Source: Candidatus Poribacteria bacterium (GTDB taxonomy: Bacteria; Poribacteria; WGA-4E; WGA-3G). Taken from it: a DNA stretch of 64,000 bases. Position 1 is the first letter of the stretch. Every line of letters starts with the position of its first letter. Made by a program: the position numbers and the translations under genes. The notes beneath the pieces are model-generated. The model made no database searches, was not told the origin of the DNA, and worked only from the letters and a program-made list of their open reading frames with translations. The DNA is taken from positions 3,328,001 through 3,392,000 of the forward strand of contig OZ240248.1 in the NCBI GenBank assembly GCA_965198235.1, in the 5' to 3' direction. Positions 22,654 to 50,885 of this stretch are shown piece after piece.

Positions 22654-22847
22654 TTTTGATGATTGAATCTGAGCCTTGTTCCACTACGTTCCATAACGCC
22701 TCTATCTAAATTGAAAACCTGCTTTAGGTTTGAAAAGGTTCATAACTTCACCGTAAACCACTGCGGAATGAAATTAGGTTTCCTTAAATGGCATAATTTG
22801 TCTTTGCTTTACATTTGGAGCAGTGACCAGAGGCAATAGTTTAAAAA
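22654..22847. repeat. family-A bipartite palindromic element with cargo
   Basis: Degenerate minus-strand hairpin 22674-22698; plus-strand cargo hairpin 22759-22825; ends TTTAAAAA before the gcvT ATG. Confidence 0.8.
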
Positions 22848-23933
22848 ATGAAGCGAACGCCCCTTTATGAGGTACACAAAAGCCTCAATGCTAAATTCAC
22901 CGAATTCGGCGGTTGGGAGATGCCCCTTCAGTATAGCAGCATTGTTAAGGAACATTTGGCTGTCCGGAGCATCGCCGGTTTGTTTGACCTGTCACATATG
23001 GGAGAGGTTGAAGTTTCTGGACAGGGGGCGAACGAATTGGTGCAGAAACTCAGCACGAATGATGTGAGTCGTTTAAGCAATGGACGTGTGTTGTATACAC
23101 TATTCTGCAATGAAACAGGCGGAATCGTTGACGACCTACTCGTTTATCGACATGCGGATAATCACTATATGTTGGTAGTCAACGCCGCCAATATTGAGAA
23201 AGATCTGGCGTGGGTGGAGACCTGTAACGATGCAGGTGCAGAAGTAAAAGACATATCCGAGGACACGGCTCTCATTGCCCTGCAGGGTCCAAAGGCAATA
23301 GACCTTCTGAATCCTTTCGTTCCTGAACGAGATGTCTCCGAGATTCCGTATTTTCGATTTACAGCCGGTGAAGTCGCTGGGGTCCCTACCGCTATTTCAC
23401 GTACGGGTTATACGGGGGAAGTTGGCTTTGAGTTATACGTCCCTGCGGCGGATGCCGAACGTTTGTGGACTGCTCTGTATCCTGCCGTCATGGCAGTAGG
23501 AGGACAACCGGTGGGGCTTGGTGCGCGCGACACCTTACGTCTTGAAGCCGGACTTCGCCTCTACGGCATGGACATGAGCGACGACACGAACCCGTTTGAA
23601 GTTGGGCTGGGTCGGTTCGTCAAATTTAAGAATCGACAATTTATCGGCAAAAGTGCACTCCTTGCAGAGAAAAAGAAGGGCATCACGAAACAGATGATTG
23701 GATTTCAGATGCTTGACCGTGCTGTAGCACGTGCTGGTTATGCTATTTATCAAGGCGGTGAACGCATTGGTAGTGTGACCAGCGGTGCCCCTTCGCCGAG
23801 TCTTAAATGTAGTATCGGTTTCGCTTCTGTTGAATCACAAGCGGTGTCTGAAAATGAAAAAATTGATGTAGAAATTCGAGGTAAATTGCACCCCGCTATA
23901 ATTGTGGAGGTGCCTTTTATTTCAAATTTCTAA
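22848..23933 (+). CDS. gcvT: glycine cleavage aminomethyltransferase T
   Basis: KRTPLY, FDLSHMG, SRTGYTGE, GLGARDTLRLEAG. Confidence 0.97.
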   Translation: MKRTPLYEVHKSLNAKFTEFGGWEMPLQYSSIVKEHLAVRSIAGLFDLSHMGEVEVSGQGANELVQKLSTNDVSRLSNGRVLYTLFCNETGGIVDDLLVYRHADNHYMLVVNAANIEKDLAWVETCNDAGAEVKDISEDTALIALQGPKAIDLLNPFVPERDVSEIPYFRFTAGEVAGVPTAISRTGYTGEVGFELYVPAADAERLWTALYPAVMAVGGQPVGLGARDTLRLEAGLRLYGMDMSDDTNPFEVGLGRFVKFKNRQFIGKSALLAEKKKGITKQMIGFQMLDRAVARAGYAIYQGGERIGSVTSGAPSPSLKCSIGFASVESQAVSENEKIDVEIRGKLHPAIIVEVPFISNF

Positions 23934-24159
23934 CGACGGGCCTCTGGACTGCTCTCCACTACGTTTCGAGTAGGTTTCTGGTGAAGTTAGTTACAGCGGA
24001 TAAAGGAATTGCAAGGTTTTTTGTGTATCGCACGTGCCTTTTTAGGGGTGAACACGCGTCTCACCAGATACCATCGTGGAACGAAATTATGTTTCCTTAA
24101 ATGGCATAATTTGTCTTTGCTTTACATTTGGAACGATGACCAGATTTCACAGTTAGAAA
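23927..24159. repeat. family-A element with cargo
   Basis: TTTCTAAC..GTTAGAAA ends; hairpins 23949-23973(-) and 24072-24138(+); inner IR GGTTTCTGGTGA/TCACCAGATACC. Confidence 0.85.
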
Positions 24160-24172
24160 AAGAGAACATAAA

Positions 24173-24559
24173 ATGATTCCACAAGACTTAAGATACATGG
24201 AAAGCCATGAATGGATCAAACAAGAGGGAGACATCGCTACTATTGGTATCAGCGATTATGCCCAATCCGAAATTCAGGATATTGTCTATGTTGAATTGCC
24301 CGAAGTTGGCACTGAACTCACACAGAAAACGGAGTTCGGTGTGATAGAGTCTGTCAAGGCGGCATTCGATCTCTATGCTCCTGTCAGCGGTGAGGTCATT
24401 GAGGTCAACGAATCGCTTCTCGACGCACCGGAACAGGTGAATGAGTCTCCGTACAATGAAGGTTGGTTCCTCAGAATCAGAATGACTGACACTAACGAAC
24501 TTGACGCACTTCTTGATGCCGATGATTATCAGGCGCATATTGAGGCGGAGCATGCTTGA
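24173..24559 (+). CDS. gcvH: glycine cleavage H protein
   Basis: SHEW, ESVKAA lipoyl lysine, PYNEGW. Confidence 0.97.
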
Positions 24560-27407
24560 AAAACAGAAAAACGGAAGATCCTTCGCAAATCGACACATCG
24601 GTCCTCGTCCAGAAGATGTTGAATGGATGTTGTCAACGCTCGGCTATTCTTCAATGACTGATTTCATTGAAGATGTTGTGCCAGCGGATATTCGTTTATC
24701 CTCCGCTTTCAGTTTAAATGGAGATGTGTGTGGGCTTTCAGAGTCGGAGGTGCTTGCCGCACTCAAGAAACTTGCTTCCCAAAACCAAGTCTTTCGCTCT
24801 TTTATTGGAATGGGATACTATAATTGCTTTGTTCCGCCAGTCATCCAACGAAACATTTTGGAAAATCCCGGTTGGTACACCCAATACACACCCTATCAAG
24901 CCGAGATTTCACAGGGACGTTTGGAGGCATTGCTTAACTTCCAAACAATGGTGATTGATTTAACCGGTTTACCTGTCGCGAATGCTTCTCTCTTAGATGA
25001 GGCAACAGCCGCCGCCGAGGCGATGGGGATGTGCCTCACCCTTACAAAACAGAAAACATGCCGCGATTTTTTCGTTTCTGAAACCTGTCATCCACAAACT
25101 ATCGCTGTTTTGCAGACGCGTGCTGAGCCTCTCGGCATTCGATTGGTTATTGGGGACCATAGAAATACGGACTTTGACGCGCCAATTCTCGGTGCTATCG
25201 CACAATACCCCGCAACTGATGGCGCGATTTACGATTACAGCGAATTTGGGGAACGAGTGCATGCCGCTGGCGGTTTGTTCATTACTGCCACAGATCTGTT
25301 AGCACTGACCCTTTTACGTCCACCTGGCGAGTTTGGAGCAGACATTGCTATCGGTAGTGCACAGCGATTCGGGGTTCCGCTCGGTTATGGCGGTCCGCAC
25401 GCTGCCTTCCTCGCTACCCGTGAGCAACTAAAGCGACAGATACCCGGAAGGATTGCGGGTGTTTCTCAAGATGCGACCGGCAAACCGGCTATCCGCTTGG
25501 CACTCCAAACGCGGGAGCAGCATATCCGACGTGAAAAAGCAACGAGTAACATTTGCACCGCGCAGGTACTACTCGCTGTGATGGCAGGGATGTATGCGGT
25601 TTATCATGGACCCACAGGACTTAAGCACATCGCTGAACGCATCCACTCACTCACTTGCACATTACGTGCAGGGCTTGGAGAACTTGGGTTTACAACGGGG
25701 AAATTGCCCTGTTTTGACACTCTCTCTGTTGGTGTGCCGTTGGGAACAACGGAGGAGTTGCTCGACTCTGCCCGTGCAAAACAAATAAACCTTCGGGCAA
25801 CTAATTCAACGCATATCGGTATCTCTTTAGACGAAACAACGACATTGGTCGATGTTGAAGAAATCTTGCAAGTATTTGGTGCGCGAACAAGTTTGGAAAG
25901 CGTACCTGCAAGTGACATTCCTATAGATTTGCAACGGAAGAGTTCCTACCTAATGCATCCGGTGTTCAATAGTTACCATTCTGAAACCGAGATGCTTCGC
26001 TATATCCACAAGCTTCAAACCAAAGATCTTTCCCTTGTGAATGCCATGATACCTCTCGGTTCTTGTACCATGAAACTCAATGCTACGGCGGAGATGGTCC
26101 CAGTAACATGGAACGAGTTTGGCGGACTGCACCCCTTCGCGCCGCGAGAGCAAGCAAAAGGGTATCAGCATCTGTTTTCACAATTAGAAACGTGGTTAGC
26201 TGAGATAACGGGTTATAGTGGTATCTCATTGCAACCGAATGCGGGTTCACAAGGTGAATATGCAGGACTGTTAGTCGTCCGAAAATACCACCAGAGCCGC
26301 GGTGAGTCACATCGTGATGTTTGTTTAATACCAACATCTGCTCACGGCACAAATCCTGCAAGTGCTGTGATGGCAGGTATGCAAGTTGTCGTCGTCGCGT
26401 GCGATACGGATGGGAATATTGACCTCGAAGATCTGGAATTAAAAGCTGACAAGCATCGTGAAGATCTTGCCGCTGCCATGATTACATACCCTTCAACACA
26501 TGGGGTCTTTGAAGAGAAAATTCGAGAGATTTGCGATATTGTTCATCAATCCGGTGGACAGGTCTACATGGACGGTGCGAATCTGAATGCCCTTGTTGGA
26601 ATCGGGCAGCCAGCAGATATTGGAGCGGATGTATGCCATTTGAATCTCCACAAAACTTTCTGTATCCCTCACGGTGGGGGTGGACCGGGAATGGGACCCA
26701 TTGGGGTTAAGGCGCATCTCACAGACTTCTTGCCAACACATCCACTTGTCCCTGTCGGTGGTGATGCTGGAATTGGTGCCGTGTCTGCTGCCCCGTGGGG
26801 AAGCCCAGGAATTCTGCCCATCTCATGGGCATATATTGCGATGATGGGAACGCAGGGGCTTACAGCCGCGACAGAAGTTGCGATCCTGAACGCGAACTAT
26901 ATTGCCAAACGGCTCGCGCCTCATTATCCTGTCCTTTATACGGGAAAAAACGGCTTAGTTGCTCACGAATGTATCATTGATTTGCGTGCATTCAAGAAGA
27001 ATACCGATATAGATGTGACCGATATCGCAAAGCGACTGATGGACTACGGGTTCCACGCACCGACTGTTTCTTGGCCCGTACTGGGGACGATGATGATTGA
27101 ACCGACAGAAAGCGAATCGAGGGCGGAGTTAGAGCGGTTCTGTGATGCTCTCATTTCAATACGTGAAGAGATAGCGGAGATTGAGACGGGTGTCGCTGAT
27201 CAGGTAGACAATGTGTTGAAGAATGCTCCGCACACCGTGGAAATGGTTACACGATCTGAATGGAGTCATTCGTATTCGCGTGAAAGAGCCGCGTTTCCGA
27301 AACCTTGGGTCCGCGAGGCTAAATTTTGGCCCGCAGTCGCACGTATCAACGAGGTTTACGGAGATAGGAATCTTTTGTGTGCCTGCCCACCGCTTGATAA
27401 ATATTAA
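24552..27407 (+). CDS. gcvP: glycine dehydrogenase (single-chain P protein)
   Basis: [31 protein letters not shown]; start trimmed. Confidence 0.97.
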
Positions 27408-27551
27408 TTTCAGTGACGCGAATTCCGTGTTCATAGCACGTAGCACGAACTGTATGAAGTTTAAGAATTTAATTGGGTGACTACCGACATCACCTTTGGG
27501 AAAAGGAATGGCAGGTCTACGGTAGAAGACGGTACAATTTACAGAAATGGT

Positions 27552-27697
27552 TGTCCAGTCTAATTGGGACATCCGTATTCGCTTAAGAAAGCGTACATGG
27601 CTCAGACCCCGTTGACTTAAGCGAAAACCACCGTGAAACGAAATTATGCCCTAAATGGCATAATTTGTTTTTGCTTTACATTTGGAACGGTTTAAGC
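27552..27697. repeat. family-A element with cargo (variant left hairpin)
   Basis: Inner IR TTCGCTTAAG/CTTAAGCGAA; cargo hairpin 27630-27691. Confidence 0.75.
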
Positions 27698-27734
27698 ATC
27701 AACTCGACTCCGCTATAAATGTTAAAGCACGAGT

Positions 27735-27808
27735 GTTTTTGCTTGGGGTTTTTGCTTGGGTGTTTCTGCGGATTTCTTCGATGGTTAACAGATTTAATAA
27801 TTAAAAAT
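27735..27808 (+). repeat. family-B fragment
   Basis: TTTTTGCTTGGG x2, TGTTTCTGCGGATTTCTTC, AATTAAAAAT-ATG as at 42151-42285. Confidence 0.7.
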
Positions 27809-29215
27809 ATGAAAGCAATAATTATAGGCGCAGGAGAAATTGGGTTCCATATTGCCAAACTTCTCACTGTCCAAGATAACGATGTTGTTCTCATTGATGA
27901 GTCCGATGCTGCCTGCGACCGGGTTAATGAACAATTGGACTTGCAAACGCTGCACGGATCGGGGGCATCCCCGCGCCTTCTCAAAACCGCTGGGATTGAC
28001 GAAGCCGACCTCATCATCGCCGTTACAAATAGTGATGAGATTAATATCCTCGCTTGTCAGATAGCCGGTAGGTACGGTGTCAACACAAAAATCGCACGTG
28101 TCTCAAATCCTGACTACTTCTCCACGGAAAGTGGACTCACTCCTAAAGACTTCGGTATTGATCTTCTGGTGAATCCAGAACAGCGCTGTGTTGCTGAATT
28201 TGTCCGGCTCTTGCATATACCTGAGGCGCGGGAGATTGTCGAATTTGAAGACGGAAAAGTCCAACTTGTTTCCTTTCGTGCCAAACAGTCAAACCCCTTG
28301 ATAGGAAAATCGCTCGCGGAATTGGACGCAAGTGGGCTTCTCGCTGATATCCGCTTCGCTGCCATTAGTCGTCGTGGAGGTTCCAATAACGGCAACCCGA
28401 TCAGTAATGGCGGCAGACACATTATCATTCCGAGAGGGGCGGATGCTTTGCAACAAGGGGACGAAGTCTTTGTCATCGGCAGTGCGTTGGCAGTTGAGCA
28501 ATTGTTACGTATTAGTGGTATCACATTTAATCAGCAGCTGGACCGCGTTATCATTGTTGGCGCAAGCCCTATTGGCATTGGACTCGCCCGTGTGCTTGAA
28601 GAAAACGACACCAACGTCAAACTCATCGAAGCCGATCAAACACAAGCGCGACTGGCATCCCAAATGCTAAAGCGCACCACCGTTTTACAGGGCGATTATC
28701 TCCAATTCAGACTCCTTGAAGAAGCAGGTATAGAGGGTGTTAACGGATTCGTCTCGGTTACGGGGGACGATGAGAACGATATTATGGCATGTATGACTGC
28801 CAAAGAGAACGGTGCCCAGCGTGTACTCGCACTCGTTCAGCGACCACGTTATCTCCCCTTGTTGGCACGCATTCCGAGACTCGATGGCGCGGTCAGCCGA
28901 CATCTCACTGTTGTTAGCAATATCCTGCGGCTCATCCGTCGTGGAAATATAGTTTCTGTTGCCTCACTGCACGGAATAGATGCGGAAGTTATTGAGATTG
29001 TCGCTGGAGTCAACGCGAAGATTGTCCACAAGGAACTTATCTCTTTCAAAACAAAATTTCCAGAAAATGCCTTTATCGGTGCCGTCATTCGGCGGGAAAA
29101 ACTCATTATTCCAACCGGTCAGTCTGTTATCCAACCTGCAGATCGCGTTATCGTCTTTAGTATGCCCGATGCGATTCCTATTGTCGAAGACCTGTTCGCC
29201 GAACGCCGCATCTAA
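27809..29215 (+). CDS. trkA: Trk K+ uptake NAD-binding subunit
   Basis: IIIGAGEIG, AVTNSDEIN, two RCK pairs; start trimmed. Confidence 0.95.
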   Translation: MKAIIIGAGEIGFHIAKLLTVQDNDVVLIDESDAACDRVNEQLDLQTLHGSGASPRLLKTAGIDEADLIIAVTNSDEINILACQIAGRYGVNTKIARVSNPDYFSTESGLTPKDFGIDLLVNPEQRCVAEFVRLLHIPEAREIVEFEDGKVQLVSFRAKQSNPLIGKSLAELDASGLLADIRFAAISRRGGSNNGNPISNGGRHIIIPRGADALQQGDEVFVIGSALAVEQLLRISGITFNQQLDRVIIVGASPIGIGLARVLEENDTNVKLIEADQTQARLASQMLKRTTVLQGDYLQFRLLEEAGIEGVNGFVSVTGDDENDIMACMTAKENGAQRVLALVQRPRYLPLLARIPRLDGAVSRHLTVVSNILRLIRRGNIVSVASLHGIDAEVIEIVAGVNAKIVHKELISFKTKFPENAFIGAVIRREKLIIPTGQSVIQPADRVIVFSMPDAIPIVEDLFAERRI

Positions 29216-29245
29216 AAGGGTGTATCGCTTGGCATTTCTCTTGTC

Positions 29246-30751
29246 ATGAGCCTTAAATTAATCGTTTATACTCTTGGGAATTTACTTATCTGTCTCGCGG
29301 GAACGATGCTGCTCCCTTTGGGAGTGGCTATCTATTATCAGGTGAGTGCCGGTGAAACCGAGAGCAATTTGATGGCGTTCGTCATCTCAGCGATATTCAC
29401 CTTAATTGTTGGTTTGGCTCTCCGTTTTAGTATTCGCGCGCGACAGGAAGAACTCGGCATACGCGAAGGTTTCGCAGTTGTCGCTTTGGGATGGGTGACA
29501 GTTGCTCTCTTCGGTACGCTGCCCTACCTATTTGCAAATGTGTTTCACATTGATGGTCGCTCATTGTGGACAGAGTTTTCCTTCTGTTATTTTGAATCTA
29601 TGGCAGGGTTCTCGACTACGGGTGCCACCGTCCTCACAGAAATTGAGCATCTTTCACACGCCGTGCTTTTCTGGCGGAGTCTTTCACACTGGCTCGGTGG
29701 GATGGGAATTGTCGTTCTTGCTGTCGCGATTCTTCCAATGCTCGGCATCGGTGGTATGCAGCTTTTTCGCGCCGAGGCACCCGGACCGCAGACCGATCGA
29801 CTCACCCCCCGTATTGCACAAACCGCTAAACTTCTCTGGGGCGTTTATCTCCTGCTCTCTCTTTTAGAAACAGTGCTACTGATGCTCGGCGGAATGTCGC
29901 TTTTTGACGCGCTCTGCCACACCTTTGGCACGATGGCAACCGGTGGGTTTTCGACGAAAAACCATAGCATTGGACACTACAATAGTGTTTATATTGACAT
30001 GGTAATCAGTTTCTTCATGTTTCTCGCTGGGACCAATTTCGCACTTCATTATCGTGCCCTCCGGGGCAATGTCAAAGCCTATCTCCAAGATGCAGAATTC
30101 AAATTCTACTGTGTCGTTATCGCAGTGAGCATTACCTTAATTTCATGGAATACAATCAGGTTTCAGGTCGATGGGGATATCCCTTATGATTCAATGTGGA
30201 CATCGCTACGCTATGCTACATTTCAGGTCATGTCTATCATCACGACCACCGGCTATGGGACTGCTGACTTTGAACGGTGGCCCGCCCTCTCCCAATTCAT
30301 TCTGGTAACACTCATGTTCTACGGGGGGTGTGCAGGTTCCACCGGTGGAGGTATGAAGCAGGTTCGATTCCTACTCCTTATCAAACAGAGCGGTGCCGAA
30401 ATTAAACGCCTCCTCTTCCCGCATGCTGTGCTTCCTATTCGCGTTAACGATCGAGTGGTTCCACCCGAAGTGATGACAAATGTCCTCGGTTTTTTCTTTT
30501 TTTTCATCGGAATTTTTGCGATTGTAACGTGCATTATGGCAACTTTGGGTCTCGACCTTGTTAGTGCCGCTGGAGCGACAATTGCTACGATGGGAAACAT
30601 CGGTCCTGGGCTCGGCAGCGTGGGACCGACCAATAACTACGCGCATATTCACACGACTGGAAAATTTGTTCTGGCATTCTGTATGTTACTGGGACGTTTA
30701 GAACTTTATACCGTGCTGATCCTCTTTTCACCGAATTTCTGGAGAAGATGA
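29246..30751 (+). CDS. trkH: Trk K+ uptake membrane subunit
   Basis: FSTTGAT, ATGGF, TTTGY, GNIGPG, GRLE. Confidence 0.95.
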   Translation: MSLKLIVYTLGNLLICLAGTMLLPLGVAIYYQVSAGETESNLMAFVISAIFTLIVGLALRFSIRARQEELGIREGFAVVALGWVTVALFGTLPYLFANVFHIDGRSLWTEFSFCYFESMAGFSTTGATVLTEIEHLSHAVLFWRSLSHWLGGMGIVVLAVAILPMLGIGGMQLFRAEAPGPQTDRLTPRIAQTAKLLWGVYLLLSLLETVLLMLGGMSLFDALCHTFGTMATGGFSTKNHSIGHYNSVYIDMVISFFMFLAGTNFALHYRALRGNVKAYLQDAEFKFYCVVIAVSITLISWNTIRFQVDGDIPYDSMWTSLRYATFQVMSIITTTGYGTADFERWPALSQFILVTLMFYGGCAGSTGGGMKQVRFLLLIKQSGAEIKRLLFPHAVLPIRVNDRVVPPEVMTNVLGFFFFFIGIFAIVTCIMATLGLDLVSAAGATIATMGNIGPGLGSVGPTNNYAHIHTTGKFVLAFCMLLGRLELYTVLILFSPNFWRR

Positions 30752-30762
30752 ACCGTCCGCGG

Positions 30763-30869: not shown

Positions 30870-30912
30870 CATGCGGTTCGATTTTAAGAAGGATGTTCAG
30901 AATATTCAAAAA

Positions 30913-34193: not shown

Positions 34194-34200
34194 AACAAAA

Positions 34201-41334: not shown

Positions 41335-41546
41335 TTGGACTCCTAGGCCGCCCTCCATTACATTTCGGGCAAGTTTCAGGTCAATTTCAACGGAGTTGGA
41401 GACAAGTAAGATTCTTAAACATTTCATAACCCAGGAGGAGTTAGAATTCACCGGAAACCACCGCGTAATGAAATTATGCCTTAAATGGCATAATTTGTCT
41501 TTGCTTTACATTTGGAGCGGTGCTCAGGTTGCTAATCGTTAAAAAA
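41323..41546. repeat. family-A element with cargo
   Basis: Hairpins 41350-41370(-) and 41459-41522(+); TTTTTTAA/TTAAAAAA ends. Confidence 0.85.
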
Positions 41547-42074
41547 ATGAATGCAGAACAGATTCTATTTATTCTCTTTGGAGCGGTCTCGCTGATTGGC
41601 GCGATTGCTGTAATTTCGTTTCGACATCCGATTTATAGCGCGCTTTCGCTTATTGTAACGTTTTTCGCACAAGCAGGGCTTTTTGTCCTGCTGGGCGCAC
41701 ATTTCGTTGCGGCTGTTCAAGTAATTGTCTATGCCGGCGCGATTATGGTCCTGTTCCTCTTTGTGATTATGCTCCTGAACTTGGGTACACTCTCGGCGAA
41801 AGGGGCTATTGGGGGGAAACTGAAGGGATTCGCTATAATCTTAGGCATTCTCTTTGCCGCCGAAGGCATCTATATCGCAGTGAATGCGCTCAACGACACC
41901 GCAGTGGCATCGGCAGAATCCACGGCGGCAGCGGTAACGACAACCACTTATGACATTGGCGAACTCTTGTTCAGCAAGTACCTCTTACCGTTTGAGGTTA
42001 CTTCGCTTATTTTGTTGGCGGCATTGATTGGCGTTATCGTCTTGGTAAAACGCGAAGGTCAAGAAGAAAACTAA
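41547..42074 (+). CDS. nuoJ: complex I subunit J
   Basis: QVIVYAGAIMVLFLFVIMLL, PFEVTS. Confidence 0.96.
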   Translation: MNAEQILFILFGAVSLIGAIAVISFRHPIYSALSLIVTFFAQAGLFVLLGAHFVAAVQVIVYAGAIMVLFLFVIMLLNLGTLSAKGAIGGKLKGFAIILGILFAAEGIYIAVNALNDTAVASAESTAAAVTTTTYDIGELLFSKYLLPFEVTSLILLAALIGVIVLVKREGQEEN

Positions 42075-42075
42075 A

Positions 42076-42285
42076 GTCAGTAATCAGCAGTCAGTAGGTG
42101 AGGTGTTTATCTTCATAGCATCAAAGACGTAGCCTGTAATGTAATGGAAGGGTTTTTGCTTGGGGTCTTTGATAGGGGTTTTTGATAGGGTGTTTCTGCG
42201 GATTTCTGCGGATTTCTTCAGATTTACGCTAGGGAATGTCAAAGTCCTAAAGCCACTTGACCGAACCGCAAGGAAAATTAAAAAT
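42076..42285 (+). repeat. family-C remnant plus family-B element
   Basis: TCAGCAGTCAG; GTAG-CCT-GTAATGTAATGGA-AGG; TTTTTGCTTGGG; CCGCAAGGAAAATTAAAAAT-ATG. Confidence 0.8.
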
Positions 42286-42585
42286 ATGTCATTAGAGTAT
42301 TATCTCATTTTGAGCGCGCTCTTGTTTACAACGGGAGTCATCGGGGTCCTTATCCGCAGGAACGCTATCATCATCTTTATGTGTATTGAACTGATGCTAA
42401 ATGCGGCGAATCTCGCCTTTGTAGCTATCAGTCGTAGTCTCGGTGAGGCAACGGGCCAGGTGTTCGTTTTCTTTGTGATGACTGTCGCTGCCGCCGAGGT
42501 CGCGATTGGGCTCGCAATTATTGTGAGCGTCTTCAAACATCGACAGACAGTTAATGTGGATGAAGTTAATTCCTTGAAGGGCTAA
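42286..42585 (+). CDS. nuoK: complex I subunit K
   Basis: [17 protein letters not shown]; start trimmed. Confidence 0.96.
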
Positions 42586-42783
42586 TTTCTAATTATTGGG
42601 TTTTTGCTCTGCTCTCCACTTCGTTTCGAGCAGGTTTTTGGTCAGGTTGCAGCGTGTTTGAGAATCTGTGCAATGTTCACAAAACGCTTTAAGAAATCCG
42701 ACAAGTGCCCAGTGCCGCCGTAAATTAACCGAAAACCATCGTGAAACGAAGTGGAACGATGAGCAAAAACTTAATAGTTAAAA
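42586..42783. repeat. family-A element without cargo (cleanest copy)
   Basis: Outer IR AATTATTGGGTTTTTGCTC/GAGCAAAAACTTAATAGTT; hairpins 42609-42633(-) and 42737-42761(+). Confidence 0.9.
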
Positions 42784-42794
42784 GGGTTTAAAAA

Positions 42795-44684
42795 ATGTCA
42801 CTTGAACTCATTAGTGTTCTGTTAGTTGCCCCGCTTGTTGGGTTTCTGATTAACGGGTTGTTAGGAAAATGGCTAAAAGGTAACGAGCAACTGAGTGGAT
42901 GGATAGGTTCGCTTGCAGTGCTTGTTTCTTTAGTCTGTTCGATTATCGCTTTTGCCAGTTTGCACGGCGGTGCTGCCCCGTTCGATGAAACGCTGTATGA
43001 ATGGATTACAGGCGAGTCGTTCGCTTTCAATATCGGGTTCCGTGTGGACGCACTAACGTCAGTGATGTTGTTGGTGATTACAGGTGTTGGGTTTCTCATC
43101 CACGTCTATTCGATCGGCTACATGCATGGCGATGCAGGATATACACGCTATTTTGCCTATCTGAATCTGTTCATCTTTGCGATGCTAATCTTGGTCCTCG
43201 GAAACAACTATCTGATGATGTTCGTCGGATGGGAAGGGGTTGGACTCTGCTCATATCTCCTCATAGGATTCTGGTATGAGAAGCAAACGGCGACAGATGC
43301 TGGAAAAAAAGCGTTTATCGTGAACCGAATCGGTGATTTCGGGTTTCTGCTGGGGATGTTTACTCTGTTTGCTGCTTTCGGAACTCTCGATTTCGCATCG
43401 ATATTTGATGCCGCTGAGGCAGATAATTTTCAGAAAGTCTTTGGTGCCAGTACCCTCGTAATTGCGACCTTGTTACTTTTCGTTGGCGCGATAGGTAAAT
43501 CGGCACAAATTCCGCTCTATGTATGGCTCCCGGACGCAATGGAAGGTCCCACCCCTGTCAGTGCCTTGATTCACGCCGCTACAATGGTGACGGCGGGCGT
43601 ATATATGATAGCACGCTCCGCTGTGCTTTATAATATAGCACATACCGGCGAAGTGGTCGCTTGGATCGGCGTTTTGACTGCCTTCTTCGCTGCAACGATA
43701 GCACTTACCCAGAACGATATTAAACGCATCCTCGCTTATTCCACTGTGAGCCAACTCGGGTATATGTTCCTTGGTGTTGGTGTTGGTGCTTATGCATCTG
43801 GCATTTTCCATTTAGTAACGCATGCCTTCTTTAAAGGACTGATGTTCCTTACCGCTGGTAGTGTGATGCACGCAATGGCAAATGAATTGGATGTGCGGAA
43901 GATGGGCGGCTTAAAGGCAAAGATGCCGATAACGCACTGGACCTTTTTAGTAGGTGCCCTTGCTATTGCCGGGTTTCCGTTTCTGAGTGGTTTCTGGAGC
44001 AAAGATGAAATCTTGCACAGTGCGTGGGGGAGTTCACCTATTATTTACGTCATCGGTTTAGTCACGGCGTTCTTGACGGCGTTTTATATGTTCCGCTTGA
44101 TCTTTGTGACGTTTTATGGTGAATCTCGTGTTGAATCCGAAGTTGCTTCGCATCTGCACGAATCGCCACCGGTCATGTGGGTGCCGTTGGCAATTCTGGC
44201 GATCCCTTCTGCCTTAATCGGTTTGCTGTTGGGGTGGGGTGGACATGACAGTTGGTTCCACCACTTCACGAAGAGTGTTTTTCCAGAGGCACACCATGAG
44301 GCATCGGGTAATGTGATCTTATTTATGGTGATTTCATCGGTTGTGGGTTTGGCAGGGATTGCGTTCGCGTGGTCGCGCTATCGCGAAAGGACACCGTCTG
44401 ACGAACCTACCAATGCACTACATAAGCTTCTTGCGAACAAGTACTATGTTGATGAGGTATATAACGCACTCATCGTGCAACCGATTAAAAACGGTTCTCA
44501 CTACCTACTCTGGCGGATTATAGATAACGGTATTATTGATGGGATTGTCAACGGTGTCGGGTCTATTATTCGATTTATTGGTGGAACGTTGCGCCGCCTC
44601 CAGACAGGACTTGTCCAAGTGTACATTGTATCAATGGTTCTCGGAATTGTGTTATTCCTCGCATACTATCTGTTTTTTACTTAA
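42795..44684 (+). CDS. nuoL: complex I subunit L
   Basis: GKSAQIPL, WLPDAMEGPTPVSALIHAATM, HAFFK. Confidence 0.97.
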   Translation: MSLELISVLLVAPLVGFLINGLLGKWLKGNEQLSGWIGSLAVLVSLVCSIIAFASLHGGAAPFDETLYEWITGESFAFNIGFRVDALTSVMLLVITGVGFLIHVYSIGYMHGDAGYTRYFAYLNLFIFAMLILVLGNNYLMMFVGWEGVGLCSYLLIGFWYEKQTATDAGKKAFIVNRIGDFGFLLGMFTLFAAFGTLDFASIFDAAEADNFQKVFGASTLVIATLLLFVGAIGKSAQIPLYVWLPDAMEGPTPVSALIHAATMVTAGVYMIARSAVLYNIAHTGEVVAWIGVLTAFFAATIALTQNDIKRILAYSTVSQLGYMFLGVGVGAYASGIFHLVTHAFFKGLMFLTAGSVMHAMANELDVRKMGGLKAKMPITHWTFLVGALAIAGFPFLSGFWSKDEILHSAWGSSPIIYVIGLVTAFLTAFYMFRLIFVTFYGESRVESEVASHLHESPPVMWVPLAILAIPSALIGLLLGWGGHDSWFHHFTKSVFPEAHHEASGNVILFMVISSVVGLAGIAFAWSRYRERTPSDEPTNALHKLLANKYYVDEVYNALIVQPIKNGSHYLLWRIIDNGIIDGIVNGVGSIIRFIGGTLRRLQTGLVQVYIVSMVLGIVLFLAYYLFFT

Positions 44685-44790
44685 TTTTTAACTATGGACC
44701 TATGGGCACCGTTCCACTTCGTTACACGGTGGTTTACGGAGAAGTAGAGAGCCTGCTTTAGGTTTAGAAAGGTTTCTGACCTTACCGATT
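44685..44790 (-). repeat. family-A left arm
   Basis: Minus-strand CACCGT-GTAACGAAGTGGA-ACGGTG at 44707-44731; CCTGCTTTAGGTTT spacer shared with ~22720. Confidence 0.75.
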
Positions 44791-44970
44791 TTCAAAACGC
44801 CGACGCGAATTGCATCAGAAAGATGAAGATCGTTGGCTTTTTTGGTGCTTCCCTTCGATGTGGCTCTGGAAGACTTGGTTCAAGCGATAACCTATTCCTT
44901 CAAAAGAGGGAAGTGCAACCAGTGAATTATTCCTATTGATGAAAGTTAATTTGTCCTAAAGGAGGTTTCC

Positions 44971-46629
44971 TTGTTACTTTCAATAGTCATTTTTTTACCA
45001 CTGCTCGGTGTGATAGCGATTGCCTTGCTCAGAGGACTCGGTGCCTCCGCTGTCAAAGGCATCGCGCTTGTCATTGGGCTCCTAACTTTTATTGTCTCAT
45101 TGGGGCTTTACACCGGGTTTGACACAACGACTGCAACGTTCCAAAATGTCGCGCAGCAAGAGTGGATTCCCGGTTTAGGTACAAGTTACCACATCGGCAT
45201 TGATGGTATTTCGCTATGGTTAGTGTTGCTTACAACTTTCCTGACACCGGTGTGTATCCTCGCCGCATGGAATTCGGTCGAGAAAGGGCTAAGCGGTTTT
45301 ATGATGTCGCTCCTCGCTCTTGAGACCGGGATGTTGGGTGTCTTCTGTGCTTTGGATCTGTTCCTCTTTTTTGTATTTTGGGAGTCGATGCTAATTCCGA
45401 TGTACTTCCTCATCGGTATTTGGGGTGGAGAACGTCGAATTTATGCAACCGTGAAGTTCGTTCTTTATACAATGGCGGGCAGTGCGCTAATGCTGGTTGG
45501 CATCTTGGTGCTGTACTTCCAAAACAACAATAGTTTCGATCTCACGACGCTTAGCGGTCCGTTTGAACATTCACATCTATTGTTCTTGGCGTTTTTCATT
45601 GCATTTGCGATTAAGGTTCCGCTCTTTCCGTTCCATACTTGGCTACCAGATGCCCACGTTGAAGCCCCCACGGTGGGAAGTGTAATCCTTGCCGGAGTAC
45701 TGCTAAAGATGGGAACCTATGGGATAATCCGATTTTGCCTACCACTCTTTCCCGATGCAGCGGCTGAATTTACTCCGTTGATAGTGCCACTCGCTGTAAT
45801 TGGCATCATTTACGGCGCATTGGTGGCGATGGTCCAACCAGATCTGAAAAAACTGGTCGCATATTCCAGTGTGAGTCACCTCGGTTTTGTAGTGTTGGGG
45901 TTGTTTTCAAAAAATCCCGCTGGTATTCAAGGAAGCGTCTTACAAATGATTAATCACGGTTTAAGCACAGGCGCGTTGTTCCTTTTGGTCGGAATGATTT
46001 ATGAGCGACGACACAGCAGGATGATTGTAGATTTCGGTGGCTTGGCGAAGCGAATGCCGATCTTTGCTACAATTTTTATGATTGTGACATTATCATCAAT
46101 TGGGCTACCGGGTTTGAATGGATTCGTTGGTGAATATATGATACTGTTTGGCAGTTTTGTTCAGGGAGCCTTCTCGAAGATATATGTAGTTTTGGCAACA
46201 GCAGGTGTGATTCTGGCAGCTGTATATATGCTGTGGATGTTCCAACGGGTGATGTTTGGGACACTGGATAAGACAAATGAAGCTTTGCCTGACTTGAACG
46301 CACGTGAGATCGTTGTGATGCTTCCGATACTGCTGTTCATCGTCTGGATCGGCGTTTATCCGAAACCTTTCCTGAGTAAGATGGAGAAATCAGTAGGACT
46401 TGTCGTGACGCAGGTACAAACTGAACCTGCTATGGGGCGCGCGGGAGAACAGGAGAATAGCAGTCAGCAGTCAGTGGTCAGCAGTCAGCAAGACGGAGAC
46501 ACTTTAATAAAAAACCTCTTTCCTGATAGCCGACAGCCGATGGCTGATAGCCAATATACCGAACTCGCTCTACACGGGACACAGCGCGCCCAGCATGAAA
46601 AGATTGAAAAGGAGGCAGAGACGAAGTAA
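44971..46629 (+). CDS. nuoM: complex I subunit M
   Basis: WLPDAHVEAP, LKMG, YSSVSHLG; TTG start after GGAGG. Confidence 0.96.
   Translation: MLLSIVIFLPLLGVIAIALLRGLGASAVKGIALVIGLLTFIVSLGLYTGFDTTTATFQNVAQQEWIPGLGTSYHIGIDGISLWLVLLTTFLTPVCILAAWNSVEKGLSGFMMSLLALETGMLGVFCALDLFLFFVFWESMLIPMYFLIGIWGGERRIYATVKFVLYTMAGSALMLVGILVLYFQNNNSFDLTTLSGPFEHSHLLFLAFFIAFAIKVPLFPFHTWLPDAHVEAPTVGSVILAGVLLKMGTYGIIRFCLPLFPDAAAEFTPLIVPLAVIGIIYGALVAMVQPDLKKLVAYSSVSHLGFVVLGLFSKNPAGIQGSVLQMINHGLSTGALFLLVGMIYERRHSRMIVDFGGLAKRMPIFATIFMIVTLSSIGLPGLNGFVGEYMILFGSFVQGAFSKIYVVLATAGVILAAVYMLWMFQRVMFGTLDKTNEALPDLNAREIVVMLPILLFIVWIGVYPKPFLSKMEKSVGLVVTQVQTEPAMGRAGEQENSSQQSVVSSQQDGDTLIKNLFPDSRQPMADSQYTELALHGTQRAQHEKIEKEAETK
46457..46552. 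repeat. family-C element in frame inside the nuoM 3' end
   Basis: AGCAGTC-type heptamers ... CTGATAGCCGACAGCCGATGGCTGATAGCC. Confidence 0.75.
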
Positions 46630-48123
46630 TTGAAGTTTAAATTTACAACTTGTCTTATTCTTTGTGTGATTTTGGGGCTCGCGTTGTCAGTTTCAATGGG
46701 AGCCTTCGGAGCAGATGACGCACACGGTGACGAAGGCGCACACCACGGTCATGGGGTAGACGGGGCAAAATTGCCTATTTGGAGTATCATACCATTTGTT
46801 GGTATATTACTCTCTATTGCGATTTTCCCACTTGTGTTGGATTCCCATTTTCTTGTCCACCACGGCGGAAAAATGTCATTGATATGGGCGTTAGTCTTCG
46901 CAATCCCGTACCTTGTAGCATTTCGAGGAGAAGCCTTTTACGACATTCTGCATATTTATCTGATAGACTATATCCCGTTCATTATTCTGTTGTGGGGGTT
47001 GTTCACGGTTGCGGGTGGGATTCTCGTGCGTGGGACATTGCGTGGCACGCCGATAGTTAACACACTCTTACTACTTATCGGCACTGCTATCGCCTCATGG
47101 GTAGGCACAACAGGCGCATCAATGCTCCTCATCCGCCCGCTAATTCGAGCAAACGCGTATCGGCAGAACAAGATCCATCTGATTATCTTCTTCATCTTTC
47201 TCGTGAGTAACATCGGTGGTTCTTTGACACCGTTGGGTGATCCACCACTCTTTTTGGGGTTCTTGCACGGAGTGCCTTTCTTCTGGACAACAACGGCGCT
47301 CTTCCCACACATGCTGTTTATTAGCATCATCTTAATTGTGCTTTTCTTTGTAGTAGACACAGTCTTTTTCAAACGGGAAGGCGGTGTAGTTCCAGATGAT
47401 GGTACCAGTGAACCTATTCGTGTAAGTGGACTGTTTAACCTAATCTTCCTGCTCGGAATTGTCGCCGCTGTCCTGATGAGCGGTACCGCGAAATGGGGAG
47501 AGGTCAACATCCTCGGTGTGCATGTGACCTGGCAGAATATCGCTCGTGATGTGTTGATTGTCGTCATGGGGCTGTTATCCCTCAGGTTTACACCCTTTAG
47601 TGGTGAGTTGCGTCAAGCGAATGAGTTTTCATGGGAGCCGATTGAAGAGGTGGCAAAAGTGTTCGCCGGTATCTTTATGACCATTGTTCCAGCGTTGGCG
47701 ATTCTGAAAGCCGGTGAAAACGGCGAGTTACGTGGGTTAATTGGGGCGATAAAAGAACCATTGCACTATTTCTGGGTAACTGGAGTTCTGTCGAGTTTCT
47801 TAGATAATGCTCCGACCTATTTGACGTTTTTCAACACAGCACTTGGCAAATTGCATCTCACTGAAGCCGTAGTACCGGAAATTTTGTCTGGACAGTTGAC
47901 AGGTGCCGAGCACTTAGAATTTGTGAACCTGCTAACTGCCATTTCTGTTGGGGCTGTTTTTATGGGGGCAAATACCTATATCGGCAATGCCCCGAACTTC
48001 ATGGTGAAGGCAATCGCAGAACAAAGCGGTATCCGCATGCCGAGTTTCTTTGGATATATGCTCTGGTCGATAGGGATTTTAGTCCCGCTCTTTGTGATTG
48101 TGACGTTAGTGTTCCTACGCTAA
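46630..48123 (+). CDS. IT-superfamily putative cation/H+ antiporter (CitMHS_2-like)
   Basis: SNIGGSLTPLGDPPLFLG, LDNAPTY, TYIGNAPNFMVK, many TM segments. Confidence 0.8.
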   Translation: MKFKFTTCLILCVILGLALSVSMGAFGADDAHGDEGAHHGHGVDGAKLPIWSIIPFVGILLSIAIFPLVLDSHFLVHHGGKMSLIWALVFAIPYLVAFRGEAFYDILHIYLIDYIPFIILLWGLFTVAGGILVRGTLRGTPIVNTLLLLIGTAIASWVGTTGASMLLIRPLIRANAYRQNKIHLIIFFIFLVSNIGGSLTPLGDPPLFLGFLHGVPFFWTTTALFPHMLFISIILIVLFFVVDTVFFKREGGVVPDDGTSEPIRVSGLFNLIFLLGIVAAVLMSGTAKWGEVNILGVHVTWQNIARDVLIVVMGLLSLRFTPFSGELRQANEFSWEPIEEVAKVFAGIFMTIVPALAILKAGENGELRGLIGAIKEPLHYFWVTGVLSSFLDNAPTYLTFFNTALGKLHLTEAVVPEILSGQLTGAEHLEFVNLLTAISVGAVFMGANTYIGNAPNFMVKAIAEQSGIRMPSFFGYMLWSIGILVPLFVIVTLVFLR

Positions 48124-48195
48124 GCCATTCAAGGTTATACTCAGCTACCACTGTACTCGGAAACTTGGACAGAAAACTATCAAAGGAGGTTTTGA

Positions 48196-49629
48196 ATGCC
48201 AATAGAGATTAACTGGCAATTACTGATGCCGGAGCTGATTATCGCTTTAACGCTACTCATCGTCCTCGTTTTTGACCTGTTTGACTCCATTTCAAAAGCA
48301 ATTCTCGGCTGGATGACGATCGTTGGTTCTGGGATTGCGCTATGGGTCTCCATCCAGATGCATCAAGCAGGCACAGTTGGCACCCAGTTCAACGAAATGT
48401 TCAAGGTGGATAATTTTTCCCTTTTCTTCAATACTGTTTTCCTTGTTTCGACGATTTTGGTCGCTTTGATTTCGATGAGCTATTTGGACAGGGACGACAG
48501 AAAGCAGGGACCTTACTACCTACTTATTCTGCTGGCGACCCTCGGTATGATGTTGATGGCTGCTGGCAATGAGTTGATTATTGTCTTCCTTGGCTTGGAA
48601 CTGATGTCATTATCGTTGTATGTGTTGGCAGGTTATTTTCGAGATAATCCTGCTTCAAGCGAGGCGGGCATGAAATACTTATTGCTCGGCGCGTTTGCAA
48701 GCGCGTTCTTCCTTTACGGGATCGCTCTGATTTACGGTGGTGCCGGAACGACGAGTGTCCCCGCAATTGCTGAGGCAATTACTGCTCCGAATAAATCGCC
48801 GCTGTTGTTAGCAGGAATGTTCCTTCTGATTGTTGGATTCGGATTTAAGGTCGCCATTGTTCCATTCCATCAATGGGCACCAGATGTTTACGAAGGCGCG
48901 CCCACAACGATAGCAGCGTTTATCTCTGCCGGACCAAAGGCGGCTGGGTTTGCGGCGTTCCTCAGAATTTTTATGGAAGCCCTACCAACCCTGCAAGTCG
49001 AATGGAGTGGTGTTATCATTGTATTGGCGATGTTAACGATGACAGTCGGAAATGTCATTGCGATCGCGCAGACAAACATCAAGCGGATGCTCGCTTATTC
49101 AAGTATTGCCCACGCAGGTTATGTCCTAATAGGCTTGGCGGCTGCAAATAATGACGGAATTTCGAGTGCGATGCTTTATCTGCTCGTTTACTGTGTGATG
49201 AACATCGGTGCGTTCGGTGCGGTCATCTTGGCAAAAACGGAGGATGGCGAGAGCCTTATGATTTCCGATTACGCAGGGCTTGGTCTCCGAAAGCCGTTAC
49301 TTGCTATGTTTATGACAATAATGCTTTTGTCACTCGCCGGTTTTCCGCCGACTGCTGGGTTCGTCGGAAAATTCTATATCTTCAAATCAGCAGTTCAGGC
49401 AGGGCATATCTGGCTCGTTATTGTGGGTGCCATCAACACAGCAATATCAGCATTCTACTACCTCCGAGTTGTTGTGACAATGTATATGCGTGAACCGGAA
49501 GAGGAGCTAACATTTACGTCGTACCCAAGTACCCTCGTAGTTGGGCTAATCCTCGCCGCGATTGGTGTGTTGCTTATCGGTATTCTGCCGTCGCTCATGC
49601 TGAATCCAGCACAGAATTCCGTTTTTTAA
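48196..49629 (+). CDS. nuoN: complex I subunit N
   Basis: SEAGMKY, PFHQWAPDVYEGAPT, KRMLAYSSI. Confidence 0.97.
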   Translation: MPIEINWQLLMPELIIALTLLIVLVFDLFDSISKAILGWMTIVGSGIALWVSIQMHQAGTVGTQFNEMFKVDNFSLFFNTVFLVSTILVALISMSYLDRDDRKQGPYYLLILLATLGMMLMAAGNELIIVFLGLELMSLSLYVLAGYFRDNPASSEAGMKYLLLGAFASAFFLYGIALIYGGAGTTSVPAIAEAITAPNKSPLLLAGMFLLIVGFGFKVAIVPFHQWAPDVYEGAPTTIAAFISAGPKAAGFAAFLRIFMEALPTLQVEWSGVIIVLAMLTMTVGNVIAIAQTNIKRMLAYSSIAHAGYVLIGLAAANNDGISSAMLYLLVYCVMNIGAFGAVILAKTEDGESLMISDYAGLGLRKPLLAMFMTIMLLSLAGFPPTAGFVGKFYIFKSAVQAGHIWLVIVGAINTAISAFYYLRVVVTMYMREPEEELTFTSYPSTLVVGLILAAIGVLLIGILPSLMLNPAQNSVF

Positions 49630-49798
49630 GCGATTAAGGTTGCTCGGTTTTGTCCGTTGTCCAAAACCGAATCCGTGATGAAAAGTGAGTTGTTGGGCAG
49701 GACCCCAATTATTGCACTTTTAATCACGAAACCAAGAATTAATAAACCATCCGTTTCTCGACAACGGAGAGAAACGAGCAAGGACAATAGCTTAAAAA
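49622..49798. repeat. bipartite element with GACAACGGA loops
   Basis: TTTTTAAGC..GCTTAAAAA ends; hairpins 49644-49670(-) and 49752-49776(+); central hairpin ~49674-49728. Confidence 0.85.
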
Positions 49799-50773
49799 AT
49801 GTCAGACATTAGGTTAGGCTTTATCGGCACGGGTGGCAACATGAATCGCCACTTGCGCGAGTTAACCGAGATTGGCGGTTCAACATTCGTCGCCTTCTGT
49901 GATATTGTAGTTGAGAAAGCGGAGCAGGCTGTCACACAGTATGGTGGTAAAGCCTACGCCGACTATAACCAGATGCTCGCGCACGAGGAATTGGATGCCG
50001 TTTATATCTCAATCCCACCTTTTGCCCACGGCGCGCCTGAGCGTGCTGTTGTTGCCGCCGGACTACCGATGTTTGTGGAAAAACCTGTCCACATGGATGC
50101 CGATGAGGCGAAAGACATCGCAGCGGAAGTAGAAGAAAAGGGCATCATCACCGCTACCGGGTATCAGGAACGTTATCTTGACATCATCGACAAAGCGCAG
50201 GAACTCCTCGCTTCCCGACGTGTCGGATTCTTCATGGGCTACTGGATGGGCGGCATGCCCGGCCCCGGCAGTTGGTGGCGAGAAAAGGCAAAATCTGGTG
50301 GACAACTCATGGAGCAGACGACACACGAATTTGATATGGCGAGATACCTCTTCGGCGAGGTTAAAACTGTCTATGCCGTCGCACGCTATGATCTGATTCC
50401 CGATACCGATTACGATATTGAGGAAGCGTCTGCGGTCTCTTTGCAATTTGAGAGTGGGGTCTTTGGTATTATGTTCTCCGCCTGCTTCACAACAAATGGG
50501 ATGAGTCGTTCTGGATTGGACATTTTCTGTGAGGACGGTTCTCTTGAATACCATCTCCGTAGTGCGCTCGTACTCTCTACTGCTGAAGAGACGACCACGT
50601 GGAATCCGCAAAATAATTGCACGATTGATATGGATAGCACTTTTATTGAAGCAGTTCGCACAGGCGATGGCAGTGCGATCCGATCACCCTATTCGGATGC
50701 CGCCAAAACCGCAATTTTGTCAATCGCTGCCAACGAATCTCTTGAAACGGGTCTACCTGTCCACTTAGGCTAA
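49799..50773 (+). CDS. Gfo/Idh/MocA oxidoreductase
   Basis: GFIGTG, FVEKPV, GGQLMEQTTH. Confidence 0.9.
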   Translation: MSDIRLGFIGTGGNMNRHLRELTEIGGSTFVAFCDIVVEKAEQAVTQYGGKAYADYNQMLAHEELDAVYISIPPFAHGAPERAVVAAGLPMFVEKPVHMDADEAKDIAAEVEEKGIITATGYQERYLDIIDKAQELLASRRVGFFMGYWMGGMPGPGSWWREKAKSGGQLMEQTTHEFDMARYLFGEVKTVYAVARYDLIPDTDYDIEEASAVSLQFESGVFGIMFSACFTTNGMSRSGLDIFCEDGSLEYHLRSALVLSTAEETTTWNPQNNCTIDMDSTFIEAVRTGDGSAIRSPYSDAAKTAILSIAANESLETGLPVHLG

Positions 50774-50789
50774 AGACGGTTGGAATTAA

Positions 50790-50885
50790 CTGAGAACGCT
50801 GCGAAATGAAATTAGGTTTCCTTAAATGGCATAATTTGTCTTTGCCTTACATTTGGAGCAGTGCCCAGAATTAATCGTTTAGAAA
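50790..50885 (+). repeat. family-A right arm with cargo
   Basis: Cargo hairpin 50797-50863, ends TTAGAAA-ATG. Confidence 0.8.

Follow-up and report, generated by a model that had tools for sequence, protein, structure and literature searches.

A 40–43-base noncoding element that probably spreads on its own through intergenic hairpin repeats of Candidatus Poribacteria

The insertion sequences (IS) IS1397 and ISKpn1, which are 1.4 kb long, encode a transposase, have inverted ends, and duplicate their target, insert into hairpins of repetitive extragenic palindromic (REP) sequences and bacterial interspersed mosaic elements (BIMEs), and the enterobacterial repetitive intergenic consensus (ERIC) occurs in forms with internal inserts. 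[quoted passage not shown] The REP/REPIN-RAYT systems are characterized, in the part of PMC3116915 that treats them, as abundant intergenic palindromes with Watson–Crick arms that proliferate within a genome alongside Y1 transposase genes. Among the elements that PMC3184786 covers, the pneumococcal BOX (boxA-boxB-boxC) is presented as a modular hairpin-forming intergenic repeat and the classical MITEs Nezha and Correia as small elements of high copy number with empty and filled orthologous sites. For Poribacteria, we found no paper on intergenic repeats, although other search terms might still find one. Here we analyze a stretch of 64,000 bases of a Candidatus Poribacteria genome (the window, G000:C1:3328001-3392000; the genome, G000, is 5.17 Mb in two contigs, C1 and C2, and 96.3% complete), in which five intergenic hairpins, the hosts, carry in their loops a common unit of 40–43 bases, hereafter the cargo. 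The cargo has been gained repeatedly, in different lineages, at pre-existing host copies, and it enters two unrelated host families with only the loop motif in common, plus a few non-host sites of the form YGAAA/T. It is probably a separate noncoding mini-element that propagates itself inside hairpin hosts and is likely selfish or neutral.

An A/T-rich hairpin whose stem varies and a near-invariant 19-base tail, TTTGTCTTTGCTTTACATT, make up the cargo. A search of the window for this tail, allowing up to three mismatches, gave five matches, all on the plus strand and with zero or one mismatch (starts at 22797, 24110, 27664, 41494, and 50835), against a chance expectation of 0.03; none of 100 shuffles reached five. 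On reading the sequences, each of the five lies in a hairpin loop, flanked by ...GAA and TGGA. A filled host is laid out as an outer stem of six to seven pairs that is specific to the copy, the loop entry G-N-A-A-Y-G-A-A, the cargo, T-G-G-A, and the other arm. Cataloguing by loop motif across the 5.17 Mb, we identified 325 empty and 86 filled host loops. The motif of the empty loop has 13 bases, G-N-A / A-Y / G-N-A / R-T / G-G-A, and 415 matches compared with about 10 expected by chance; 325 of these had at least four contiguous stem pairs, and the remainder include copies whose 3' arm is made of other modules. A profile search with the empty host returned 432 pieces in the genome, 301 of them near full length. 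The Y and R of the empty loop covary almost perfectly (C..G 202, T..A 120, other 3; n = 325), and the loop is therefore a two-pair mini-stem under a GNA triloop cap.

Positions 1–4 of the outer arms were paired in 85, 84, 83, and 82 of the 86 filled copies, for which no prior filter for pairing had been applied, with several pair types at each position, and wobble pairs were rare (17/1300). The orientation of hosts between co-directional genes is approximately balanced, with 83 versus 82 empty hosts and 28 versus 25 filled hosts of the family termed type A. Taken together, the strict pairing, the few wobbles, and the presence of both orientations point to a constraint on a DNA palindrome, not on one RNA strand. 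Hosts of another family, type B, terminate in ACCGCAAGGAAAA and have only the loop motif in common with type A; the cargo is found in type-B hosts of other species as well.

Evidence that the cargo moves independently of its hosts comes from a host tree and from orthologous sites. The tree was built from the flanks and arms of 279 type-A hosts (59 filled), with the loop and cargo excluded; type-B hosts, unclassified hosts, and hosts with fewer than five stem pairs were left out. The filled or empty state required 55 changes, as compared with 54.1±2.1 for shuffled labels, and cargo-bearing hosts do not form the single clade by which an earlier, preliminary description of this DNA would have recognized one ancestral insertion. 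Three control loop characters, taken from outside the alignment, did cluster on the same tree (65 vs. 90.6±4.4, 78 vs. 117.1±3.8, and 73 vs. 84.4±3.7 changes). As the controls cluster but the filled state does not, the tree contains signal, and none of it concerns the cargo. The same description had called the cargo far more conserved than its hosts, and the contrast holds genome-wide, with a mean pairwise identity of 0.848 for the cargo versus 0.599 and 0.577 for the 5' and 3' parts of the host. Of 45 type-A copies whose cargo does not exceed 52 bases, 27 agree in all of the last 32 cargo bases. Of the cargo variants among the 86 filled loops, V2 (45 copies) and V1 (30) predominate, followed by V2' (4), V3 (3), and others (4), and the sub-variants occur across many host stem classes. 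V2 equals V1 with a 3-base insertion and one change, a shared derived state, and occurs in 33 of the 59 filled hosts on the tree, across 15 stem classes. Filled hosts were more often on the skew-inferred leading strand than empty ones (57/86 vs. 159/322, Fisher p=0.007), but the skew arms are very unequal (0.37 and 4.05 Mb), which makes origin and terminus uncertain, and the bias therefore carries no conclusion.

Orthologous sites show the gains directly. A host upstream of gcvT was found in just one of 29 species, G050, where it has the same arms and flanks as in G000, and this site (L120) is empty: its loop reads GGAATGTAATGGA, as opposed to GGAATGAA-cargo-TGGA in G000. When filled loci of other assemblies were placed on G000, 43 of 100 mapped with both flanks at one place. 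Reading these alignments by eye, we found 5 that are filled in G000 (L046, L081, L102, L045, and L105, the last two with a further nested insert) and 13, representing 10 distinct sites, that oppose an orthologous empty host; the rest had no host or were unclear. The automatic flags counted 3 of the same 43 loci as filled and 16 as empty, with 24 marked as other. L081 is the orthologue of the window site upstream of copA in another assembly and is filled with another cargo variant. The nearest relatives, G018, G014, and G036, have 8, 18, and 15 filled copies; 24 of 30 filled loci from nearest relatives mapped to G000, and not one of the 24 is filled there.

At the type-B loop between nuoJ and nuoK, 13 species including G000 are empty and three (G036, G006, and G015) are filled. 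G036 and G006 are a sister pair (support 100), and G015, which belongs to a distant clade (support 98), retains the 3' flank of its empty neighbor G037. Filled loops in two separate clades imply at least two gains into an older host. A different history applies to the nuoH/nuoJ spacer, which measures 6–8 bases in 20 of 29 loci of other species, the remaining nine being unreadable; the whole host with its cargo is therefore new in the G000 lineage. Within the assembly itself, contig C2 (43,879 bases) is 99.3–100% identical to 40 kb of C1 (C1:775767-815774) and is without the 41 cargo bases of C1:789087-789127, having there a unique 16-base loop. The sequences beside this site differ by 0 and 3 mismatches in 2.9 and 3 kb, and the difference in cargo is very recent. 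Either C2 represents a strain haplotig, or the stretch was recently duplicated. A 230-base type-B host at 16419-16648 is present in C2 only.

The cargo was found in a narrow range of genomes. An exact cargo 30-mer was found at at least 100 loci of other assemblies, and among the matches listed, the carriers are metagenome-assembled genomes (MAGs) of Candidatus or uncultured Poribacteria, bar one "uncultured bacterium." With at most one mismatch, the 19-mer occurs in all 18 sampled genomes of the same genus, at 1–34 copies each versus 62 in G000, and in 0 of 12 genomes from other families of the order. Type-A hosts, searched by pattern, number 214 in G000, 21 in G050, and 0–2 per genome in 59 genomes of other genera. 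Two adjacent and opposed type-A loops with the arms CACCGC and CATCGT at G088:C1:2873781-2873878 look genuine. G088 belongs to a different genus of the same family of organisms, and its genome otherwise has none of these hosts; a bin contaminant is possible, as is horizontal transfer.

Where the loop is of the GAA type, a clean insertion follows Y-G-A-A-A and precedes T-G-G-A, to within one ambiguous base. The middle base of the loop is A in 85 of the 86 filled copies, while in empty loops it is A (170), T (132), G (20), or C (3); this base needs 73 changes on the host tree. Outside the hosts, the cargo lies in a spacer between tRNA genes after CGAAA in 8 of 29 loci of other species, six of them flagged automatically and two (L232 and L234) added by sequence reading, and several of the other loci have an uninterrupted spacer. 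G000 has an old stand-alone copy of this kind between the second and third tRNA gene (C1:5072300-5073500, L207), at a locus where three tRNA genes and the large signal recognition particle RNA stand in a row upstream of a dnaX-like gene. Further non-host copies lie within another repeat at C1:3766266 and, in either orientation, beside start codons. The stems of non-host copies differ and covary (GTGC, TTGCC, CTGCC), and the tRNA-spacer copy has drifted between species, which suggests older subfamilies and a weak constraint on the tail there.

We compared the cargo with the known classes of small mobile elements and found none of the tested defining features of MITEs, REPINs, or IS200/IS605 derivatives. 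Its ends, AAATTATG... and ...TTTACATT, form no terminal inverted repeats of some 10 bases or longer, with only the four bases AAAT/ATTT matching, and pairs of empty and filled orthologous sites show no target duplication beyond an ambiguity of at most one base (T); in many pairs, loop bases are replaced. Reading all 99 genome matches to the tail with up to four mismatches revealed no autonomous IS with cargo ends, and no host loop contains a gene-sized element, the contents being nothing, the cargo, or the cargo with a small insert. The cargo has one hairpin only and not the two subterminal hairpins of the IS200/IS605 type. What it resembles is the behavior of cyanobacterial SDRs, as a tiny noncoding unit in repeats that is present or absent at orthologous sites and has neither terminal inverted repeats nor target duplications, and the resemblance appears to be one of behavior only. 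As for other candidates, a large IS split over host loops was rejected, as the 39 apparent insertions of more than 130 bases were pairs of neighboring hosts, and a phage origin was rejected with 0 exact 30-mer matches in viral_contigs. The genome has six matches to the Y1 transposase family PF01797, three of them IS605-like with a tnpB-like open reading frame (ORF) downstream and three RAYT-like and flanked by other palindromes. The RAYT-like genes (C1:606918-607262, 1898775-1899119, and 3853757-3854101) have palindromes of their own, e.g., GCACTCCAGCGGAGTGC, or GCACCCCGTAGGGGTGC followed by ATGTCTATAG, and with these form a REPIN-like system apart from the host and cargo family.

By the mechanism that we propose, the cargo would spread on its own among a larger population of intergenic hairpin hosts in one genus of Candidatus Poribacteria. 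The landing spot is the mini-loop at the apex of the host hairpin, immediately between Y-G-A-A-A and T-GGA, and the transfer would probably be template-directed copying, with donor copies remaining in place. An enzyme recognizing the folded DNA hairpin loop could be responsible, or else short-patch conversion or template switching between hairpins. The linkage between cargo variant and loop bases (below) would fit co-transferred tracts and the non-host YGAAA/T insertions a dedicated structure- or motif-specific activity, and we regard the two as about equally likely. More tentatively, the cargo might be the first observed member of a group of ultra-small DNA elements homing into the loop of a folded hairpin, Y-G-A-A-A/T at the tip of a strictly Watson–Crick DNA palindrome, by way of an undescribed trans-acting structure-specific nuclease/ligase or a replication-linked template switch; this we hold to be possible rather than probable.

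Several observations weigh against a self-propagating element. With about 90 columns behind it, the host tree has weak resolution, and only the control characters show that it carries signal. The six Y1 transposase genes adjoin neither cargo nor host and are flanked by other repeats, and the 96.3%-complete G000 has no gene of the IS110 type (PF01548, DEDD; 0 matches). The conservation of an exact 30-mer at at least 100 loci in many species could also mean function. Many orthologous pairs are not clean, with G-TA-A or G-TA-G in the empty site and G-AA-A in the filled one; either three loop bases were overwritten, by the unit's own leading A's, or only GAA loops are targets, in which case the middle base would have to mutate first and would flip often; both readings fit. 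Finally, the cargo variant and the loop bases are partly linked, N being G in 20/45 V2 copies versus 5/30 V1 copies (p=0.014) and the combination of Y=T and N=G occurring in 19/86 filled versus 19/325 empty loops (p=2.5e-5). Pure insertion accounts for this linkage less well than do conversion tracts or some joint spread of host and cargo.

The preliminary description had favored a second, younger mini-element or conversion tract targeting the host loop, which the host tree, the orthologous gains, and the difference between C1 and C2 now back, and had offered a mobile regulatory module as the alternative. Under the latter, the cargo would be selected in many 5' regions as a terminator or attenuator on the plus strand, a sigma-70-type promoter on the minus strand, or a binding site for RNA or protein. 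Variant V1 does look the part: a simple scan finds it terminator-like, with a 10-pair stem (3 of the 10 pairs G–C), a 6-base loop, and a T-rich tail; its reverse strand resembles a promoter (AAGACA, 17 bases, CATAAT; 9/12 matches); and its hairpin alone folds at -12.4 kcal/mol (z -3.08). The exact conservation of the tail at at least 100 loci in other species, the stand-alone copies beside start codons and between tRNA genes, and the covariation of stems among stand-alone and hosted copies would also suit a function. V2, however, the commonest variant (45/86), interrupts the left arm, by which the terminator hairpin and the 17-base promoter spacing are lost and the hexamer is changed, and in folding the V2-filled element does not surpass shuffled sequences (z -0.60). 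Both readings are thus destroyed in V2, and the gene context is the same for filled and empty hosts, including their orientations (28:25 and 83:82), so that the regulatory alternative is left with little support. Moreover, copies lie inside operons (nuoH/nuoJ and gcvT/gcvH), where a strong terminator would harm, the orthologous genes of sister species do without the cargo, the old stand-alone copy drifts between species, and Rfam 15 gave 0 matches at the gathering score in the whole window and 0 at E<=1 in 41380-42820. We therefore consider a regulatory module unlikely and a selfish or neutral cargo most likely. More specific functional candidates for the cargo were also tried and rejected. 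CsrA binding to a GGA in the hairpin loop would need a CsrA gene, and none was found; for a kink-turn-like GNA/GGA internal loop, the 5' strand misfits the consensus; for a forward promoter with TTTACA as the -35 element, there is no -10 element at 16–18 bases in host or stand-alone sites; and the mini-ORF ATG-GCA-TAA is missing from V3.

Two further explanations concern history and data quality. A single ancestral insertion, after which the filled host multiplied and diversified its stems with host and cargo always traveling together, could account for the partial link between cargo variant and adjacent loop bases and for the weak clustering of cargo variants on the host tree (19 changes vs. 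22.8±1.5). It conflicts, though, with the occurrence of the same discrete stem classes in filled and empty hosts, the lack of clustering of filled hosts, the identical arms and flanks in orthologous empty and filled pairs, the two independent gains at one orthologous type-B loop, and the presence of the cargo in unrelated host families and non-host sites; we judge it very improbable. That repeat collapse or chimeric joins during assembly put a common repeat into hairpins is practically negligible as an explanation. Short-read contigs do break and join at host and cargo repeats, and C2 may be a haplotig, but many independent assemblies, including several single-chromosome records, show the same structure at 100 or more loci, orthologues of the window's copA copy among them, orthologous filled sites reappear in other assemblies (L046, L081, and L102), and the junctions are base-exact in 86 copies. 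A separate, self-propagating mini-element thus remains our preferred reading.

Within the window, tail search and sequence reading bear out the five plus-strand hairpins with cargo reported in the preliminary description, but its tally is an undercount: the window holds at least nine hosts, five filled and four empty, plus a type-B loop. The first filled type-A host, upstream of gcvT (22758..22826, plus strand), has its arms at 22758-22764 and 22820-22826, the loop entry GGAATGAA at 22765-22772, a V2 cargo (ATTAGGTTTCC...) at 22773-22815, and the exit TGGA at 22816-22819. The second type-A host, between gcvT and gcvH (24071..24139, plus strand), carries V2' (ATTATGTTTCC...) at 24086-24128. Between gcvP and trkA, the filled host at 27628..27693 (plus strand) contains at 27643-27682 a V1 cargo with its perfect 10-bp stem, flagged as terminator-like, and the 3' arm of this host is broken by a further nested element. 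Another V1 cargo is found at 41473-41512 in the type-A host between nuoH and nuoJ (41458..41523, plus strand), whose A-run extends up to the nuoJ ATG at 41547, and the type-A host upstream of copA (50796..50864, plus strand) has V2 at 50811-50853 with one tail change (GCCTTACATT). The outer arms of the five are, in this order, CCACTGC/GCAGTGA, CCATCGT/ACGATGA, CCACCGT/ACGGT.., CCACCGC/GCGGTGC, and ACGCTGC/GCAGTGC. As had been described, the perfect stem AAATTATGCC/GGCATAATTT is limited to two copies (numbered 27630 and 41459 there), and the other three have a variant left arm, ATTAGGTTTCC in copies 22759 and 50797 and ATTATGTTTCC in copy 24072. Of the empty type-A hosts, two on the minus strand follow nuoH (41347..41373) and nuoK (42608..42634), one on the plus strand lies upstream of nuoL (42736..42762), and one on the minus strand follows nuoL (44706..44732). 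The host upstream of nuoL, with the loop GAAACGAAGTGGA, is indeed an empty form with the arms of the 24072 copy. The empty type-B loop GTAATGTAATGGA is at 42136..42148 (plus strand) in the nuoJ/nuoK spacer (42075-42300), and its 3' arm has GTTTTTGCTTGGGG and GTTTTTGATAGGG units. Pfam agrees with the genes named downstream of the filled hosts, giving GCV_T, GCV_H, TrkA_N/TrkA_C, Oxidored_q3 (nuoJ), and E1-E2_ATPase with HMA (copA). With the flanking genes identified by Pfam as gcvT, gcvH, gcvP, trkA, nuoH, nuoJ, nuoK, nuoL, and copA, several copies therefore intervene between genes of one operon. In 101 of 361 cases, the A-run that ends a type-A host runs right up to a start codon, which is ATG in 85. 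Hosts adjoin coding sequences tightly in both orientations, with the A-run passing into the ATG or its complement standing right after the stop codon, which suggests insertion into, or trimming to, A/T-rich gene borders.

Hosts and cargo are accompanied by other nested repeats. The element that breaks the 3' arm of the 27628 host is a third-level mini inverted-repeat element (27691..27789, plus strand) with the ends TTAAGCATCAACTCG ... GATGGTTAA, and it carries a GTTTTTGCTTGGGG-type unit. An element of about 57 bases with the inverted ends TTAACCATCAACTCG ... CGAGTTGATGGTTAA was seen in the 3' arm of some hosts (window 27691-27789 and C1:2137961, 2911550, and 4586089); part of its loop is complementary to the cargo tail, and it looks like a classical mini-MITE. 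On a fourth level, a palindrome of about 40 bases centered on CTATAG lies in the cargo tail between AATTT and TGCTTTACATT (C1:1205472, 2140041, 2146796, 1624553, 1568988, and 3849747), and cargos with the shortened palindrome measure 51–54 bases and those with the full form 77–86. G/T-rich units (GGGGTTTTTGCTTGGGTGTTTCTT, GTTTTTGATAGGG, TTCTGCGGATTTC) replace some host 3' arms, sometimes in tandem, at window positions 42150-42260 and many other sites; the G014 spacer upstream of gcvT (L112) is taken up by five such units in tandem. Another abundant intergenic repeat, with the arms CAGTTATCAGTTAAGAGG ... CTGACAACTGACAAC, occupies the same spacers (nuoJ/nuoK and tRNA–tRNA) in other species of the genus (L194, L195, L199, L202, L204, and L205; L223 and L226-L231) and was also seen in the flanks of C1:988298.

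Few documented cases of repeats inside repeats in bacteria come with polarity and orthologous empty sites. If the hairpin-loop homing considered above were true, the cargo would be the second of at least four nesting levels (host, cargo, and tail insert, alongside the MITE-like and G/T-rich arm units), an ecosystem of repeats parasitizing repeats in a sponge symbiont. The system is countable, as one genome offers 325 empty and 86 filled targets and related genomes, dozens of them, carry different loads, and the combination of a defined 13-base structured target and a noncoding insert of 40–43 bases makes the responsible activity, be it an enzyme or a replication error, testable. In this uncultured sponge symbiont, the elements abut start and stop codons in essential operons (nuo, gcv), and hundreds of genes have untranslated regions that are shaped by them. 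The host and cargo repeats also give rise to assembly breaks and to variation at the strain level in MAGs of Poribacteria.

Each of the systems outlined at the start has part of this pattern. The cargo is like Nezha and Correia in its empty and filled orthologous sites, size, and copy number, but it has no terminal inverted repeats, target-site duplications, or related IS. Host and cargo together form a mosaic like that of BOX and ERIC, with optional inner modules at fixed positions of a hairpin repeat and within operons; here, unlike there, the cargo is gained independently of the outer repeat and is found in a second host family and alone. The hosts resemble REP/REPIN-RAYT palindromes in being abundant, intergenic, strictly Watson–Crick in their arms, and proliferating in a genome that holds Y1 genes, but they are single hairpins with a conserved asymmetric loop and not inverted REP doublets, and the RAYT-like genes are unlinked to them. 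IS1397 and ISKpn1 provide the parallel of a parasite of a repeat for which the intergenic-repeat hairpin is the specific target, whereas the cargo has no coding capacity, a terminal match of four bases (AAAT/ATTT), and no duplication. The SDRs belong to another phylum and are probably unrelated in sequence to the cargo, with its 40–43 bases, own hairpin, and fixed tail; the cargo lands at one position of a 13-base loop motif. In their general form the two are nevertheless alike, as SDRs and nested MITEs, too, are reportedly very small, noncoding, devoid of a transposase gene, located inside hairpin-forming repeats, and present or absent at orthologous sites.

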